The position numbers were made by a program, and so were the translations under genes. A stretch of 64,000 nucleotides of DNA, from IMG/VR virus record IMGVR_UViG_3300045988_131126; one strand, given 5' to 3'. Under the pieces are notes generated by a model that saw only the letters and a program-made list of their open reading frames with translations, was not told the DNA's origin and did no database searches. Origin of the DNA: a virus. Below are positions 8,602 through 64,000 of this stretch, piece by piece (within the stretch, counting starts at the first letter, position 1; each line of letters begins with the position of its first letter).

Positions 8602-10539
8602 TTATTTTATTTTCTTTAAATATGGTTTAAAATCTTTAGACTTATCAGAATCTCTTATAATAGGTCTAAATGTATTTTCTGGATCATGATAAATTGGATT
8701 ATAAAATCCACTTTCTATATCAGGATAATGATAAATTGGATTATAAAATCCATCACTATTTATATCAAGCATTGGATTTATTGGGAACCTTACTTTAGTA
8801 AAGAATTCATCAAAATCTTCCATCATCTCTCTTATAGATGCTAAATGGAACCAACGTTTACCAACTTCAAGGTAGTTTCCGTTATTAAAGTCCATAAGGA
8901 ATCTACCACCTCTATAATAAAATTCATATCTAAATGGATTTTCATTTTCATATACTTGTGTAGGTATTTCTAATCTACCAACTTGAGTATTTGGAGCCAT
9001 ATTATTTTCTCTTGCAATACTTGGATACAGAGACTTATAATCAAAATCTACTAGATTATCCATAATATTTAAAATCTCTCCATTTTGCTTTAATTTAGAA
9101 TAATCGCTATTATGCTTAGGATTACCTACTAAAGCTCCAGGGAACTTAACGTTACTATTATTTCTATTAACGTTATTACCAATAATAAATCCCTGATTAT
9201 AGAATTCTTTTGCTCCTCTATTTGTAAGATAAACAGTCTGTCTGTGACCTTTATCATATCTTGTATTATTCATTACACACTTACCAAAGATATAATCTAT
9301 ATCACCGGTTTTAACTTCAATACATTTCTGAACAATTGTATCGACGATATTATAGAATACAAATGTCTTATAATCTAAATATGGTAATTTAGAGATATCA
9401 TGTGTAATATGAGAATAATCTAATTTATTTACACCTGCTATAACTTCACCGATATCATCCAATTTAAATGATTTAAATGCTGACTGACCTTTACGTCTTG
9501 AAGCAAATTGAATCATTTGGTCCAATAATACTGTATACATAGAAAACGTATATCTATCGCATCTCTCTGCATATTCATTTCTATGTCTTTCATCTATATA
9601 ATACTTAGCAACTTTCTTTTCAAAAGCTGGATGAGACATGATCTCTGCTGGATCATATCCTAAGTTAATTATTCTCTCATATATATACGGAATATCGAAT
9701 GCCATGTTCCATGCCAATAAGAAGTCTGGTTCATATTTATTAATAAATTGAAATAATGAATATATTAATTGGATCTCTTCATCAAAGAATGCAAGACGTA
9801 CATCCAAATTATCTACTCCATATTTTTTTGCTTTTTCTGGTCCACCTACAGTTGTTATTAAAAACTCTCTTAATTCTTTAAATAAATTTGGATCGGTTTT
9901 TGCTTCATGTTCAAATTTTTCTATTAACGGATTATTTGGGTTTCTTAATAAAAATACTTTTACAAGATTTTCTTGTTCTATTATACATGATACTGCATTT
10001 ATAGGACACTCTCCCATCTCTGGAAAGTCTCCTTTCATATCTATAGTATCAGCCTCAATATCGAAGAATGCCTTCGTTACAGGACAAATATCATTTTTAT
10101 AATATAAATCAAACATGAATTTATATCTGTCTTCTATATTAGAATCACTAAATAATATATTAGGTAATTCGTGTAATAATTGATTATTTCTAAATTGACC
10201 AGTTCTTAAATTCTCATAAAAGAATTCTTCGTTACCTGTATTCTCAGCAATAGATTTTAATAAATCTCTATATTTACAAGTAATCTTATCTACTTTCTCT
10301 TTCTCTACAATAAACAAATTATGATCTGTTGTATATTCAGGTTTTAATTTATAATAATCGAAATCTGGCTTCATAATATACCTATGACCTTTTTTACCAG
10401 TTTCTAAATCTTTATATATCATAAGCATATAATCTGGATCATATTTTCCATCCTCTCTCTTTTGAGGATAATGATATCTATTATCTAATAAAGTAATATT
10501 ACTATTAAAAGGATATCCTTTAATTAATTCATCGCTCAT
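8602..10539 (-). CDS. family-B DNA polymerase, N-terminal part (3'-5' exonuclease + motif A)
   Basis: Exo I FFDIEADT, Exo II WNMAFDIPYIY, Exo III YNIVDTIV and motif A DFDYKSLYPSI occur in order. No KxxxNSxYG or YGDTDS appears before the stop. The C-terminal tail carries 2x GFYNPIYH. Confidence 0.8.
   Translation of the reverse strand: MSDELIKGYPFNSNITLLDNRYHYPQKREDGKYDPDYMLMIYKDLETGKKGHRYIMKPDFDYYKLKPEYTTDHNLFIVEKEKVDKITCKYRDLLKSIAENTGNEEFFYENLRTGQFRNNQLLHELPNILFSDSNIEDRYKFMFDLYYKNDICPVTKAFFDIEADTIDMKGDFPEMGECPINAVSCIIEQENLVKVFLLRNPNNPLIEKFEHEAKTDPNLFKELREFLITTVGGPEKAKKYGVDNLDVRLAFFDEEIQLIYSLFQFINKYEPDFLLAWNMAFDIPYIYERIINLGYDPAEIMSHPAFEKKVAKYYIDERHRNEYAERCDRYTFSMYTVLLDQMIQFASRRKGQSAFKSFKLDDIGEVIAGVNKLDYSHITHDISKLPYLDYKTFVFYNIVDTIVQKCIEVKTGDIDYIFGKCVMNNTRYDKGHRQTVYLTNRGAKEFYNQGFIIGNNVNRNNSNVKFPGALVGNPKHNSDYSKLKQNGEILNIMDNLVDFDYKSLYPSIARENNMAPNTQVGRLEIPTQVYENENPFRYEFYYRGGRFLMDFNNGNYLEVGKRWFHLASIREMMEDFDEFFTKVRFPINPMLDINSDGFYNPIYHYPDIESGFYNPIYHDPENTFRPIIRDSDKSKDFKPYLKKIK
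8686..8752 (-). repeat. perfect 25-nt direct repeat inside the polymerase 3' end
   Basis: Plus-strand ATGATAAATTGGATTATAAAATCCA at 8686..8710 and 8728..8752. It encodes GFYNPIYH twice. Confidence 0.9.
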
Positions 10540-58928: not shown

Positions 58929-59204
58929 TTATTTTTTGAATTTTAATCTATTCTTCACCGCAAATCTCAGCTTTTCCCATGTTGTATCTACATGACCATT
59001 TGGATGTATAACTAAGGAATAAGATTTTCTGTTTGCACATGTAATACTATTTACATCAACTCCAACCATCATTCCTTCATGATATGCGGGAACTAAATAA
59101 TAGTGTTTGTACATGCGTCCCAATGGAGATAAATCTATTTTAGAAATATCTTCCGCATTTTTGCATTTGTTCACTTTCTTGATTATGTAGTCTCGTTTTC
59201 TCAT
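58929..59204 (-). CDS. small basic hypothetical protein
   Basis: SD AAAGGAGAA. 91 aa. Confidence 0.6.
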   Translation of the reverse strand: MRKRDYIIKKVNKCKNAEDISKIDLSPLGRMYKHYYLVPAYHEGMMVGVDVNSITCANRKSYSLVIHPNGHVDTTWEKLRFAVKNRLKFKK

Positions 59205-59277
59205 TTTACTTTCTCCTTTTTGTATTTTTATTATAAGGTTTTGATATAAATAAAAATATAACCAAGTATAGTAATTA

Positions 59278-60315
59278 CTATACTTGGATTATTGTTTCTT
59301 TTATTTTTTCTTTTCTTACTCCAAAATCTTTCTCTCCAGGATACGTATTTCTATGTATATAGAAATTAACTTTATCCAGAAATAAATTTTTCTTTATACG
59401 TGTTATCTTGTAGTCTGGGATGTCTGCATCAGGATATAAATGTACTTCTATATTGATTAATTGTAGATTCAGTAATAAGAATCTTAATAATGATTCATAT
59501 CCAGATCCTGTTGCTGCAGCATATATATTGTTTCCCATAACGCCATCATTCATATTATATAATATAGATAATATATCAAATGGACCTTCGGCTATATGAA
59601 TCTTTATAGGTTCTATAGATAAAGGATTTATCTGATTAGGAATTACATAGAATTTGCACGTATTGTCGTATTTATCAAAGATATTATAATTTACATATCT
59701 TTTAGCTATAGTAATATATACTTCACCTATATCAAGATTTCTCATATTAATAAAAGCATTATCATATGATATAAATCCCAAAAAGTTTTTGTCTAATTGC
59801 TCTACTATATTTTGATGTCTAGTTAATTTGACATTATTAGTAGCTAATAGATCAGATAAATTCAATAATATTTTCTTTTCTATACAATCTTGAAAAGTTA
59901 AATTAGTACCTAATCTATTATTTATATAATTAAGTTTTAATAATGATAAACTATCATCAGTTATACTATAATTATTCAAATAATATTTAGCTTTATCATT
60001 ATATTTCATATTCTGTGATAGATTCATTATCTTCTTATTATATCTTGCTAAATCTATCGACAGATCTTGATCGAATAATCCCCATTCTAATAATTTATTT
60101 GGGGTGACTACTCCTTTAGCATGACACTTAAAGCAATTATATAACGAAGGTTTATTTCCAGATAAATCTACGTTAATATAAAAATGTCCATGCCTTTCAT
60201 CGTCAGAATCACGACAATAGAAGCAGCGGCAGTTTATTTCTCTGCCGCCACTAACTAACCTAGCCCAAGGCTTAATATGATTCTTTAAAAACCATTTATA
60301 CTGTTCTTCATTCAT
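59278..60315 (-). CDS. DNA primase (zinc-binding domain + Toprim)
   Basis: CRCFYC..H.H..CFKCH zinc-binding pattern. IAEGPFDILS (E-G-x-x-D) and LYPDADIPD (DxD) Toprim motifs. SD AAAGGAG. Confidence 0.6.
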   Translation of the reverse strand: MNEEQYKWFLKNHIKPWARLVSGGREINCRCFYCRDSDDERHGHFYINVDLSGNKPSLYNCFKCHAKGVVTPNKLLEWGLFDQDLSIDLARYNKKIMNLSQNMKYNDKAKYYLNNYSITDDSLSLLKLNYINNRLGTNLTFQDCIEKKILLNLSDLLATNNVKLTRHQNIVEQLDKNFLGFISYDNAFINMRNLDIGEVYITIAKRYVNYNIFDKYDNTCKFYVIPNQINPLSIEPIKIHIAEGPFDILSILYNMNDGVMGNNIYAAATGSGYESLLRFLLLNLQLINIEVHLYPDADIPDYKITRIKKNLFLDKVNFYIHRNTYPGEKDFGVRKEKIKETIIQV

Positions 60316-60379
60316 AAAGTTTCAACTCCTTTCACAAGTATAATATATACTTATTCTAAGTGTTGAAAATATTATATAT

Positions 60380-61462
60380 TTAGATATTAAAACAAAAACA
60401 AACTCCGTTGCTGGTACTGCTGCCGTCGGGGGTGGGGCCACCATTGTAGTTGACAGCAAAGAAGCCATCGGCACCGTTGCCGTAATAAGGCGAACGAGTC
60501 CACCACATACTAGCATCTCCACTTCCATTATTCATTTTCTTTATTCTAGAATTATTATCTGTAAATATAGGAAACTTTTTCTGATTTGTTTCTGTTGGAT
60601 TTTGATAGGGCCAATCATTGTTGTTAACTTCTGTTGATCCAGGTAAAAATACTATATCTTTAGAAAGTTTACCAGCGTTGGATGATGTACTGCCACCTCC
60701 TATATTAGCGTATGTATTTACTTCTTTAATTACGTTTTGTAAATCAGTAGGCATACTATTATAAATATTAATCATAACAATTTTCTTCATAGCCGTATTA
60801 TTCCAACCACCGGAGTTAGCATTGGAAGTATTCATATACTGTTTATTCTCCATTAAGTTTTTCATACCAAAACATATGCCTGCTTTGCCAGATCCATCGG
60901 ATTTAACAAAATGATTAAAATCCCATATCTGCAAAGTAACGGTTTCATTAAATGATCCTGATAAAGTTAAATCTATTTCGTCTCCAACTTTCCATAAAGA
61001 AGAAGCTACACCTGATTCACTGATGGCTGCTATTTGTTCCCATGTATTATTCTTCAATACAGGATCGGCAGCCAATACTTTTATAGCGTATATCATACTA
61101 GTACTATCGTTATATACTTTATCAGTACTTAATGTATAAAATCTATAATAATAAGTTTTTCCTACAGTTACATTAGAATCTGTATATGGAGTACTAGAAT
61201 ATTTATTTTTAGTAGTATTAGTTAATACTACAGTACCATCTTTAATACTAGTAGGAGCGCTGCCCTCTTTTCTTACTATAATAGTAGAACTCCAAGTAGA
61301 TAAAGTACTACCATTATAAACAGAAGTATTAGGATCGGTCCATTTTAATTTTACATATTTATTTCCAGATACAATATATATATTAGTTACATCTCCAGGA
61401 GGAAATCCTTTGGATGAAGATCCAGATCCTCCTCCACTTATATTTCTCATTATTACGCTCAT
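60380..61462 (-). CDS. surface/virion protein: FN3-like N-domain, lectin-like C-terminus (WWTRS...GVCF); candidate DGR target
   Basis: ..VKLKWTDP..YYYRFYT.. is FN3-like. The C-terminal WW-x-RS ... G-V-x-F framing resembles DUF6273/C-type-lectin-fold ends (recalled). The 3' ~100 nt are GC-rich with NNC codons. Confidence 0.5.
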   Translation of the reverse strand: MSVIMRNISGGGSGSSSKGFPPGDVTNIYIVSGNKYVKLKWTDPNTSVYNGSTLSTWSSTIIVRKEGSAPTSIKDGTVVLTNTTKNKYSSTPYTDSNVTVGKTYYYRFYTLSTDKVYNDSTSMIYAIKVLAADPVLKNNTWEQIAAISESGVASSLWKVGDEIDLTLSGSFNETVTLQIWDFNHFVKSDGSGKAGICFGMKNLMENKQYMNTSNANSGGWNNTAMKKIVMINIYNSMPTDLQNVIKEVNTYANIGGGSTSSNAGKLSKDIVFLPGSTEVNNNDWPYQNPTETNQKKFPIFTDNNSRIKKMNNGSGDASMWWTRSPYYGNGADGFFAVNYNGGPTPDGSSTSNGVCFCFNI

Positions 61463-61471
61463 TATATTACC

Positions 61472-61593
61472 CCCTATATAACAAAAATTACTTGTTATAT
61501 AGAGGCTTTATGCGTTTAAAATGTGGGGACAAGTTTAAATTACCTAAAAAGACCTCTATATAACAAGTTTATAAATAAACTTGTTATATAGAG
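61472..61593. promoter_or_regulatory. two inverted repeats sharing the core TTGTTATATAGAG in a divergent intergenic region
   Basis: CTATATAACAA-7nt-TTGTTATATAG (61474..61502) and CTCTATATAACAAGTTTAT-AA-ATAAACTTGTTATATAGAG (61554..61593). Confidence 0.55.
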
Positions 61594-61689
61594 TATCATT
61601 TATAAAAAATATTGTATATCGCTCCTTGTGATATACACTTTTTGTCTAACTTCATAATAATATCAAAATATATAAAGGAGGTATTAGTA

Positions 61690-62721
61690 ATGGCTAATAT
61701 TCGTTGTGATATTAAGAATGTAAGACCTCGTCCTATTAGAGGATTTCTTTCTCAGAACGGAGTCATTTTTGGTGATACTGAAATAGGATTGCCATATACA
61801 TATATTATTAAAGCTATGCATCAGTCTGATGTATATGTAAACGGTAAATTAGTAGAACGTATCGGAGATGCTAGTAAGTTATTAGATGGAATGACTGTAG
61901 TAGAAACTACTCCAGAAGATGTAGCTACTAAGCTTACAGAAATTAAAGATGGTGATATTGTTTCTCTTGCTGCTGGTGAATATACAGAACCTATTACTCT
62001 TGATAAAGAATGTATTATCTCTGGTACTAAAGATACAGTTATTGCCGCTCCTATTACTGTTAATGGCGGTAATGTAATCATAGAAGGAGTAACTATGAAA
62101 GTTACTGATAAAACTATGGTTACTGCTAATGGAGATAAAGATGTATCTATCGTTAATGTAGACTTTAAGAAGGATGATGATGTAGAATGTAGAACTCTGT
62201 TAAGTCTTCCTACTAAAGGACAAACAGTTATTGATGGATGTAACTTCAAAGATCCTAACCATAAAGTATATAATGTAATGGAATTTGGTATTAATAAAGA
62301 TGATTATACTAATGGTGGAGTTATTATTAGAAACTGTGTATTTGATCAGATTGGTCATAATCACATTAGCTTCTATAATGTAGTAAATGGCGGTAAGATT
62401 CTCATTGAGAATTGCGACTTCGGTTATAATGGTGGTATTCGTGTAAGTAATGTAAATAATACCGAATGGACTCTTACATTAAAAGATTGTATCTACAGAG
62501 GTTCTGATGAAGGAGATAACCAGAGCTTAGTATGCTTCCAGGATTTCGATAAAGAGAACGTACAAGATTTTACTAAGATTACTTTAATATGTGATAATCT
62601 TGTAGACGGTAATGGAAAGCATCTTACTAAGAATACAGATCCTCAGGTTGTTTATGTATATGATGATAAAACATCTTCTATACTTAAAGATAAAAATCAG
62701 CCAAGAATAATTTTTAAATAA
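61690..62721 (+). CDS. right-handed beta-helix (pectate-lyase-like) protein
   Basis: AAAGGAGG lies 8 nt before ATG 61690 (the track TTG at 61612 was rejected). ..GDIVSLAAGEYTEPITL.. then short V/I-x-V/I-x-N/G rungs. Confidence 0.45.
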   Translation: MANIRCDIKNVRPRPIRGFLSQNGVIFGDTEIGLPYTYIIKAMHQSDVYVNGKLVERIGDASKLLDGMTVVETTPEDVATKLTEIKDGDIVSLAAGEYTEPITLDKECIISGTKDTVIAAPITVNGGNVIIEGVTMKVTDKTMVTANGDKDVSIVNVDFKKDDDVECRTLLSLPTKGQTVIDGCNFKDPNHKVYNVMEFGINKDDYTNGGVIIRNCVFDQIGHNHISFYNVVNGGKILIENCDFGYNGGIRVSNVNNTEWTLTLKDCIYRGSDEGDNQSLVCFQDFDKENVQDFTKITLICDNLVDGNGKHLTKNTDPQVVYVYDDKTSSILKDKNQPRIIFK

Positions 62722-62729
62722 AAAATAAA

Positions 62730-62757
62730 AGTGGGATGGCAAATTTGCCATCCCACT
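62730..62757. terminator. 28-nt perfect palindrome between convergent genes
   Basis: AGTGGGATGGCAAA/TTTGCCATCCCACT, with an A-run before it. Confidence 0.7.
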
Positions 62758-62767
62758 AATTGTTTGG

Positions 62768-64000
62768 TTAGAAACGTTTGTATTCGCAACAAGCTTTCAG
62801 CATATATACTATATCAAAAAGCGCTACATAATGATGATCAAGCTGTGAAAGTTTACATCCAAATTCATCGTAGTCCTCTATATTTCTATAGATTGTACCA
62901 TGTATTACACTTTCAATAGATCTTGTTTCCATATACTTATCAATTAAGTTACATGATCTTGAAAAATCTATAGTATTGTACTTAATATCAATAATACGAC
63001 GTTTAACCATATTATTTATGATCGTTAAAATCCAATCAGTATTACTATTTACAAAATCAATATATTTTTCAATATTTTCAAATGCATTGTAATTATAGTC
63101 TTTCATGGTTTGTAATGAATGATATATTCGCATTGAACCTTGACTTCCATATATCAACTTATAAGCTTCAGATAATATATAGCAAAAATTGGATGGATCA
63201 TATTCGTGATTTTTTATTCTTTTAAGAATAGATAATCCAACTTCTCTTCTACGATCAGCAATAGATTTTTTACGTTCAGAAGTGCTGTATTTTATTTTTG
63301 TTTTGAATCTTTCCGCTCTTGTTGAATTTCCATCGTATATACTTTTAGATATTTTGAACTCTCTTTTCCAGTTGTTATCAATATCACGTCCATCAAGAGC
63401 CGAATGCTTTCTTGCATCATTTTCAGAAACAAATATAAACGGAGATTTTTTATATTCTGGATATTCTTCTACAACATCTTGCACTATCCCTTTACATTTA
63501 TTATTGTTTGCAAATTTCTCTATCTCCGTCATTATATTTTCTGTAGTTTTTGCACCGGTTATATTATCATATTCTTTCAATACCTCAATAAAAGGTATGT
63601 GATAATATCTAAGAGCATTATGATATCTAGTTATTTCATAAATTGCTTTACTAAGTTCTGCTGGAAGTAATTCTGTATTATATCTAGCCCATTCAAAATC
63701 CATAGAATATAAAGGCTGGATATACCATTTCTCGCTCCAAGGATAATATTCTGCTAGCTCACAAATAGCACTAATATTAATATTCTTCCTTTCTGATAAT
63801 TCTTTTGTTTCTCGTAATAATGATTTCGAAAATCTCAATCTATATTCCGTTTCTTTATTTTTTAAGGCTACGCATGAATCCATCTTAATGTACATAAATA
63901 AATTTGACATATATTTCATGTATTCTGGATGAATATGGTCATTGCTACGACCGGAATATTTATTGCAAATATATTTTATTTTTCTTATATTTTCATTTAC
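62768..64000 (-). CDS. hypothetical protein, 5' end outside the window
   Basis: The frame of track ORF 62768..63919 remains open from 63920 to 64000 (..VNENIRKIKYICNKYSGRSNDHIHPEY-MKYM..). Confidence 0.55.
   Translation of the reverse strand, partial: VNENIRKIKYICNKYSGRSNDHIHPEYMKYMSNLFMYIKMDSCVALKNKETEYRLRFSKSLLRETKELSERKNINISAICELAEYYPWSEKWYIQPLYSMDFEWARYNTELLPAELSKAIYEITRYHNALRYYHIPFIEVLKEYDNITGAKTTENIMTEIEKFANNNKCKGIVQDVVEEYPEYKKSPFIFVSENDARKHSALDGRDIDNNWKREFKISKSIYDGNSTRAERFKTKIKYSTSERKKSIADRRREVGLSILKRIKNHEYDPSNFCYILSEAYKLIYGSQGSMRIYHSLQTMKDYNYNAFENIEKYIDFVNSNTDWILTIINNMVKRRIIDIKYNTIDFSRSCNLIDKYMETRSIESVIHGTIYRNIEDYDEFGCKLSQLDHHYVALFDIVYMLKACCEYKRF

Follow-up and report, generated by a model that had tools for sequence, protein, structure and literature searches.

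RESULTS

A lectin-like phage gene ends in a GC-rich run of NNC and NNT codons

We analyzed a 64,000-nt stretch of viral DNA (IMG/VR record IMGVR_UViG_3300045988_131126), which as a whole is referred to here as the window, and asked what lies at the 3' end of its gene 60380..61462 (-). A preliminary description, made from the letters alone, had proposed that this end is the variable region (VR) of a diversity-generating retroelement (DGR). In a DGR, a reverse transcriptase (RT) copies the RNA of a template repeat (TR) into cDNA and misreads adenines; the cDNA then replaces the VR of a target gene, so that AAC codons become NNC. The gene encodes a 360-aa protein with an FN3 and a DUF6273 domain, as judged from the list of open reading frames (ORFs), Pfam and the homologues, and its C-terminus (...MWWTRSPYYGNGADGFFAVNYNGGPTPDGSSTSNGVCFCFNI) agrees exactly with the one written in the preliminary description. 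The Pfam match to DUF6273 (PF19789) covers aa 207-355 (E 5.7e-13), and all 325 of the 325 homologues found carry DUF6273. The same 360-aa protein is present in GenBank (DAF93195.1, Myoviridae sp. ctcyQ27) and, among ENA metagenome assemblies, on dozens of contigs of ~260-281 kb. The window itself is 100% identical to the contig ERZ27262376:k119_88226 (273,686 bp). Neighbors of the gene encode a DNA primase (phrog_19847), a Sigma70_r4 protein, a CHAP/peptidoglycan-binding lysin, a radical SAM protein and a Cpn60 chaperonin, which in combination point to a jumbo phage; its genome is ~274 kb and it comes from the human gut. It is recorded only in metagenome assemblies and in one third-party annotation (TPA) record, and a megablast search of positions 59000-62800 against GenBank phages gave no match.

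Next, we considered the protein fold. The AlphaFold2 (AF2) model has an FN3-like N-terminal beta-sandwich at aa ~20-128 (61079..61405 (-), pLDDT 90, strands at aa 26-128), and when the full-length model was compared with the PDB by Foldseek, nearly all of the top 50 matches were FN3 domains (E 2e-4 to 3e-3). As the FN3 domain dominated this search, the C-terminal DUF6273 (C-lectin-like) domain (aa 131-360, 60383..61072 (-)) was modeled by itself (pLDDT 95.7, pTM 0.92). Against BFVD, this model matched phage DUF6273, tail-fiber and receptor-binding proteins (E 2e-18 to 1e-11); against the PDB, the C-terminal domain of Legionella Lcl and C-type lectins led the matches, all of them non-significant (E>0.1). 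DUF6273 has been described as a C-lectin-like domain that is targeted by DGRs at its C-terminal end (PMC10743442, PMC11792537, bioRxiv 10.1101/2024.10.15.618418), and the segment in question does lie at the C-terminal end of a DUF6273 protein, so the placement of a VR at the 3' end of a gene with a putative C-type-lectin fold agrees with published work. The C-lectin fold is a prediction from the non-significant PDB matches taken together with these published comparisons, and the protein is probably a ligand- or receptor-binding protein of fixed specificity. The C-termini of the homologues are tripartite: a frame FPIFTDNNSRIKK..NGSG..WWTRSP is followed by ~27 hypervariable residues, rich in Y, S, N, G, D, C and F, and then by a conserved end, GVCFCF[NC][VI]. 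Several DUF6273 paralogues were found together on one contig.

The DNA of the patch stands out by composition. Its GC content is 0.57 at 60400-60499 compared to 0.2-0.35 in the flanks, in DNA of ~28% GC. In the densest stretch of 26 codons, 60407..60484 (-), 19 codons end in C and the other 7 in T, while C-ending codons make up 8.4% of the rest of the gene (binomial tail for 19/26, 1.2e-15). The preliminary description had recognized both the codon run and the GC island; the run it had given as 60485..60408 lies in frame at 60484..60407. NNC and NNT codons cannot encode K, E, Q, M or W. The run encodes none of these five residues, as is expected if its codons descend from AAC and AAT. A 68-aa ORF that overlaps the patch out of frame (60322..60528 (-)) is a product of mechanical listing and not a gene: it exists because the GC-rich patch is stop-poor, and the related contigs have no gene call at this place, so it had rightly been regarded as spurious.

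Near-identical genomes carry a DGR beyond the window

The window holds neither a TR nor an RT, as the preliminary description had reported. A scan for TR-like copies that allowed A-to-N changes found none in the window (best non-self match, 37/83 non-A positions), and no frame of the 64 kb in a six-frame scan had both a YxDD box and [ILVM]GxxxSQ. A degenerate pattern for the TR of this VR, in which every non-A base may be A, hit at least 120 loci, mostly at contig ends or in tandem; these were evidently A-rich, low-complexity sequences and were discarded as uninformative.

The rest of the DGR had been supposed to lie elsewhere, and this is where we found it. L023, a retrieved piece of the contig to which the window belongs, matches the window without a difference over 12,311 nt and ends within the final ~290 nt of a gene for a 404-aa RVT_1 protein. 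This puts the RT at ~72,432-73,646 in coordinates extended past the window, with its 3' end ~8.4 kb beyond the window end. Two near-identical genomes supplied the remainder. One contributed L001, with 99.74% identity to the window and the exact window gene, and L011, which overlaps L001 on the same contig and was reached via the paralogue P0097; the other contributed L003, which also has the exact window gene, and L148 from the same contig. L011 and L148 each contain a TR, an RT and a cognate target, and the full RT gene was seen in both. The gene order on L023 is as in L011, and the RT C-terminus retrieved on it is identical to that of the L011 RT.

In L011, which has four further DUF6273 genes and the 404-aa RVT_1 gene (L011:17081-18295), the order is: cognate DUF6273 target (L011:14957-16030), a 165-aa ORF in the position of Avd (165/166 aa, L011:16168-16665), an AAC-rich TR of 110 nt directly upstream of the RT (L011:16707-16816, sequence TCGTTCGCCTAATTACAACAACAGCAACAACTTCTGTAATGTCAACACGGACGGTAGCAACAACAACAACAATGCCAGCAACAACAATGGCGTGTGCTTCTGATTCTGTA), an RT-2 RNA and the RT. 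Across its variants the TR measures 110-113 nt. The structured RNA between TR and RT (L011:16824-17072) is a full-length match to Rfam RT-2 (RF03077; 51.9 bits compared to a gathering score of 40, E 1.9e-10). We take this RNA family to be linked to DGRs. The 165-aa ORF had no significant match in Pfam, NCBIfam or PDB sequences and a weak match to one unannotated PHROG. Of the two genes that the preliminary description had suggested looking for next to a template copy, the RT is there, and the 165-aa ORF is a candidate for Avd.

The RT matches RVT_1 (E 2.3e-15) and phrog_1423 'Reverse transcriptase' (E 2e-62) and carries both LGSEISQ and YMDD. The motif [I/V/L]GxxxSQ is a signature of DGR RTs and includes Ile181 and Gln187 in Bordetella bRT (PMC7826257). 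In the best PDB match of our RT (8ub7_A, E 5e-11), IGSLTSQ at residues 181-187 aligns with LGSEISQ; this numbering agrees with Ile181/Gln187 of bRT, and 8ub7 may be Bordetella bRT itself. The RT is thus of the DGR type by its signature motif and YxDD box. By analogy with the near-identical genomes, the TR would lie ~13.4 kb from the window VR and the active DGR ~12-14 kb away.

The cognate target is actively diversified

The VR of the cognate target in L011 differs from the TR at 19 of 38 adenines and at 1 of 72 other positions, with no gap. In seven genomes with three TR variants, cognate VRs mismatch the TR at 17-22 of 36-41 adenines and at 0-1 of 72 non-A positions, again with no gaps. All 7 of these VRs are distinct, also between genomes that share an identical TR, and 26 of the 29 listed members of two cognate clusters have unique VRs. 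Population-level hypervariability of the cognate gene is confined to the VR, and K, E, Q, M and W together amount to 0.14% of 1,466 VR residues. The phage has one working DGR, and it rewrites the cognate gene next to the TR.

Two variants of the system were noted in passing. At L015:15963-17177 gene calling gives a pair of ORFs (262 and 121 aa) for the DGR RT and not one of 404 aa, perhaps because the RT was inactivated recently or because of an error in the assembly; the cognate VR of L015 is still unique and matches the TR at all but 1 of 72 non-A sites. In P0148 (377 aa, on a 276,575-bp contig), which is a cognate target, the VR is partly tandem-duplicated (...FCGVNYDGDAGYNNNSYFCNVNSDGFASGG...).

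The window VR descends from a TR but is frozen

We then asked how the window gene relates to this TR. The segment 60385..60497 (-) aligns to the TR L011:16707-16816 with 70 matches, mismatches at 22 of 38 adenine sites and at 18 of 72 non-A sites, and one 3-nt indel. The excess of mismatches at adenines (Fisher p=0.0009) and the run in which all 26 of 26 codons are NNC or NNT indicate descent from a TR. Hence the proposal that the patch derives from DGR mutagenesis holds, and the suggested search for a template copy leads to the AAC-rich, homologous TR of near-identical genomes beside a DGR-type RT. The patch is, however, not a current DGR substrate. Against all three TR variants the window VR has 15-18 mismatches at 70-73 non-A positions and 3-6 gap columns, compared to the near-complete, ungapped match of the cognate VRs at such positions. 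A search of the window, L001, L011 and L023 gave no copy that matched it better.

The 3' homing end has decayed as well. In active VRs the TR/VR homology stops at GGCGTGTGCTTCTGCTTCTG, adjoining the stop codon. In the corresponding region for the initiation of mutagenic homing (IMH), 60386..60406 (-), the TR reads GGCGTGTGCTTCTGATTCTGT and active VRs read GGCGTGTGCTTCTGCTTCTGC; the window reads GGAGTTTGTTTTTGTTTTAAT, with 8 of 21 positions changed, mostly synonymously and towards A or T. The IMH candidate of the preliminary description, GGTGGCCCCACCCCCGACGGCAGCAG, must be abandoned: it falls mid-way in the mutagenized stretch. Moreover, a conserved, hairpin-like sequence downstream of the active VR has no counterpart after the window VR. 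Over the whole window VR, 13 of the 18 non-A changes lead to A or T.

Finally, the window VR does not vary between genomes. Nine genomes, with flanks up to 1.7% different from those in the window, have the gene without a single DNA difference, and a tenth has one synonymous change. On at least 128 contig records, the 14 protein variants listed share all 27 variable residues; G333S, which stems from an ordinary G-to-A change, occurs in a fifteenth. At the level of assemblies there is thus no variation at TR-adenine positions between genomes or samples, and the hypervariability for which a comparison of related phages had been suggested is found in the cognate VR, which differs nearly everywhere, and not in this one. 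The preliminary description had offered a fossil as its alternative, and this alternative is the one that the data favor. The frozen VR is also present in the variant P0125, whose longest contig (281,474 bp) is equal in length to the longest contigs of the TR14-type cognate target and of the fossil P0067, which suggests that the freeze predates the split of sub-lineages with different TRs.

Paralogues form a graded series and alleles are exchanged at the locus

We compared the window gene and the four other DUF6273 genes of L011, each with the TR. The cognate (active) VR mismatches it at 1 of 72 non-A positions and has a GC content of 0.63. The other values are 8/68 and 0.52 for the 12187-type VR, 18/72 and 0.60 for the window VR, 34/72 and 0.32 for the 8774-type VR, and 27/58 and 0.33 for the 11080-type VR. 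These paralogues form a decay series. In related genomes the 12187-type gene has a close relative, P0067, with an identical sequence in 48 collection blocks. Before the conserved Phe, the window VR and the 12187-type fossil each have one codon more than any TR seen.

The locus itself is not constant. Three genomes (L018, L019 and L022, at 8718-9773) have at the orthologous position a 351-aa DUF6273 allele whose VR is fully AT-adapted, and in L027 (8689-9773) the window-type gene is broken into ORFs of 238 and 37 aa. The 238-aa form (P0122) is found on 8 contigs.

The conserved framework directly upstream of the VR (FPIFTDNNSRIKKMNNGSGDASMWWTRSP, 60488..60574 (-)) is kept in homologues, and its DNA is nearly identical to the L014 cognate target over ~100 nt. 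A 1,295-nt ENA contig encodes a hybrid, P0009, in which residues 1-320 match the L014-type cognate target, a diversified gene, and residues 301-360 match the frozen VR of the window. An assembly chimera formed across the ~100-nt flank common to the paralogues is the probable cause, with real recombination as the alternative.

Neighboring genes and intergenic elements

Directly downstream of the relic VR, 59278-60315 (-) encodes a DNA primase (phrog_19847, E 1e-42) with CxxC zinc-ribbon motifs; with the primase as the next gene, the frozen lectin-like gene sits among replication-type genes, away from the fiber/target cluster. Between the RT and the window gene, L001:791-1657 (~69,806-70,672 in extended coordinates) encodes a 288-aa protein that shares 28-35% identity with the window protein over residues 17-264 of the latter and is without the VR-bearing C-terminus; its BFVD entry is an FN3-domain protein of Myoviridae sp. 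ctcyQ27. A 383-aa ORF at 62768-63919 (-) is the 3' part of a 670-671-aa Sigma70_r4 gene that starts past the window end (~64,780), and the exact 383-aa product has no database record.

Two hairpins with the arm CTATATAACAAG, 61471-61504 and 61554-61593, lie in the intergenic region from which the lectin-like gene (-) and a 343-aa gene (+) diverge. The first touches the lectin-like gene's ribosome-binding site, and a T run follows the second. All 4 of the 4 copies of the CTATATAACAAG motif in the 64-kb window lie in this intergenic region; four matches also occurred in 3 of 100 shuffles.

DISCUSSION

The patch at the 3' end of the window gene is best explained as the fossil of a DGR variable region, in a gene paralogous to an active DGR target; to this reading we assign a probability of roughly 0.88. 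The window gene would be one of several paralogues of the target, and its C-terminal segment would once have been written from an AAC-rich TR, either directly by mutagenic retrohoming or via duplication of, or gene conversion from, the active gene. Such an origin accounts for the NNC/NNT codons, the C at third positions and a GC content far above the AT-rich background. Homing would have stopped after the loss of 3' homology and of non-A identity; we infer this from the non-A mismatches, the one-codon indel and the lost GC-rich 3' homology. Since then the frozen VR may have been drifting slowly towards the composition of the AT-rich genome, as most of its non-A differences from the TR go to A or T, presumably under purifying selection on a functional binding surface.

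Several points weigh against this reading. The window's own contig gave only the 3' end of the RT, and its TR is inferred from L001/L011 (99.7% identity) and L003/L148 (99.0% over the compared 13.6 kb). The 165-aa ORF is an Avd candidate by position alone. Invariance was measured among assemblies, where rare variants within a sample are possible, and ~185 kb of the genome lies outside the scan, so that a second, better-matching TR is formally possible. Furthermore, the fit of the window VR to the three TR variants is imperfect at different places in each. Some of the non-A mismatches may come from an older or different TR and not from decay; an older TR that had the extra codon, which the 12187-type fossil has too, could account for part of them.

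Taken further, this last point becomes an explanation of its own: a diverged TR, ancestral or from a related phage, wrote the segment, which was then recombined into the locus and froze. That the window VR and the 12187-type fossil both have an extra codon ahead of the conserved Phe, which is present in no TR seen, speaks for it, as do the paralogue alleles exchanged at the locus (the 351-aa allele of L018, L019 and L022) and the three TR variants that exist already among close relatives. We nevertheless regard it as unlikely, as no TR with that codon count was found among those seen, and the non-A changes (13/18 to A or T, with a synonymous cluster at the 3' end) are what drift in place predicts. 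It is in any case a variant of the fossil explanation and not its contradiction.

Could the DGR ~13 kb away still diversify the window VR in trans? The genome has an active DGR, the mismatches between window VR and TR are enriched at adenines, and the published DUF6273 targets include remote ones, 17 kb away from their TR. Yet every TR variant leaves 15-18 of 70-73 non-A mismatches and 3-6 gap columns, the 3' homology is gone (8/21 positions changed), and the variable residues are invariant on 128 contig records whereas the cognate VR differs almost everywhere. Continued diversification is therefore very improbable. As for an origin outside any DGR, as a horizontally acquired GC-rich segment or a composition driven by Gly, Ala and Pro, the GC island and the Gly/Pro/Ala-rich peptide would fit it if considered alone, but it is refuted by the in-register alignment to a TR beside a DGR-type RT in near-identical genomes, and we consider it next to impossible. 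Against it speak also the 19 C and 7 T in the third positions of the 26 codons, a bias that amino-acid content leaves unexplained, and the classic framework-hypervariable-framework pattern of the paralogues and orthologues.

Returning to the fossil VR, we compared its surroundings with known systems. The DGR resembles that of Bordetella phage BPP-1 (mtd - avd - TR - brt) in having a target with a C-terminal VR, a small ORF, a TR, a structured spacer RNA and an RT with [I/V/L]GxxxSQ and YMDD, as well as an AAC-rich TR from which the cognate VR differs at TR adenines. It differs from BPP-1 in residing in a ~274-kb gut jumbo phage, in a target that is DUF6273 after FN3 and not Mtd, and in a small ORF without detectable similarity to Avd; moreover, the window VR is not a substrate. 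With the DUF6273 targets of gut-phage DGRs (tentaclins and Mtd-like small targets; Faecalibacterium phages; Toutatisvirus) it shares the domain, the C-terminal VR, a C-lectin-like fold (here a predicted one) and Ig/FN3-type companions. Those DGRs can have several targets each; in reported two-target DGRs, one of the two lies 17 kb from the TR (PMC10743442, PMC11792537, bioRxiv 10.1101/2024.10.15.618418). While the VRs of the reported targets match their TR, here one active target is accompanied by at least four paralogues with non-matching VRs, the window gene included, and the genome is ~5 times larger than those of the temperate phages. In DGR1 of Thiohalocapsa PB-PSB1, a VR is non-diversifying despite the DGR components in the genome. 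The window VR is likewise a VR-like segment without population variability in the presence of a DGR; in contrast to DGR1, it has diverged at a quarter of its non-A sites and has lost its 3' end. Thus, several targets per DGR, remote targets and non-diversifying VRs were all on record before, and no new mechanism is revealed. The most unusual aspect is the series of fossil paralogues in a jumbo phage.

This series raises the question whether the phage keeps an 'archive' of specificities evolved by its DGR, in which one DUF6273 gene is rewritten and copies of it are fixed as binders. Duplicated or converted copies would escape by losing the 3' homing end and would then be retained as binders of fixed specificity. 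The graded fossil VRs, with non-adenine divergence of 12%, 25% and ~47%, would fit such a history, and strong selection would act on the window copy, identical worldwide, whereas the locus is swapped or disrupted in other strains. We offer this idea tentatively and consider it less probable than its negation. If true, it would describe a birth-and-death route that turns DGR-generated variants into ordinary genes.

For annotation, the finding accounts for an odd compositional island and marks the gene product as one that probably binds a ligand or receptor. A widespread gut jumbo phage is moreover seen to have a working DGR with a cluster of paralogous targets. The RT-2 RNA at L011:16824-17072 is possible material for studying the priming or spacer RNA of this class of DGR. 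Within one genome there is a natural contrast between a VR that is rewritten in every sample and a sister VR that has long been frozen. Such pairs can help to define what a substrate needs (non-A identity, the 3' end, the downstream element), and they can show how DGR-derived sequence decays towards the composition of the genome.

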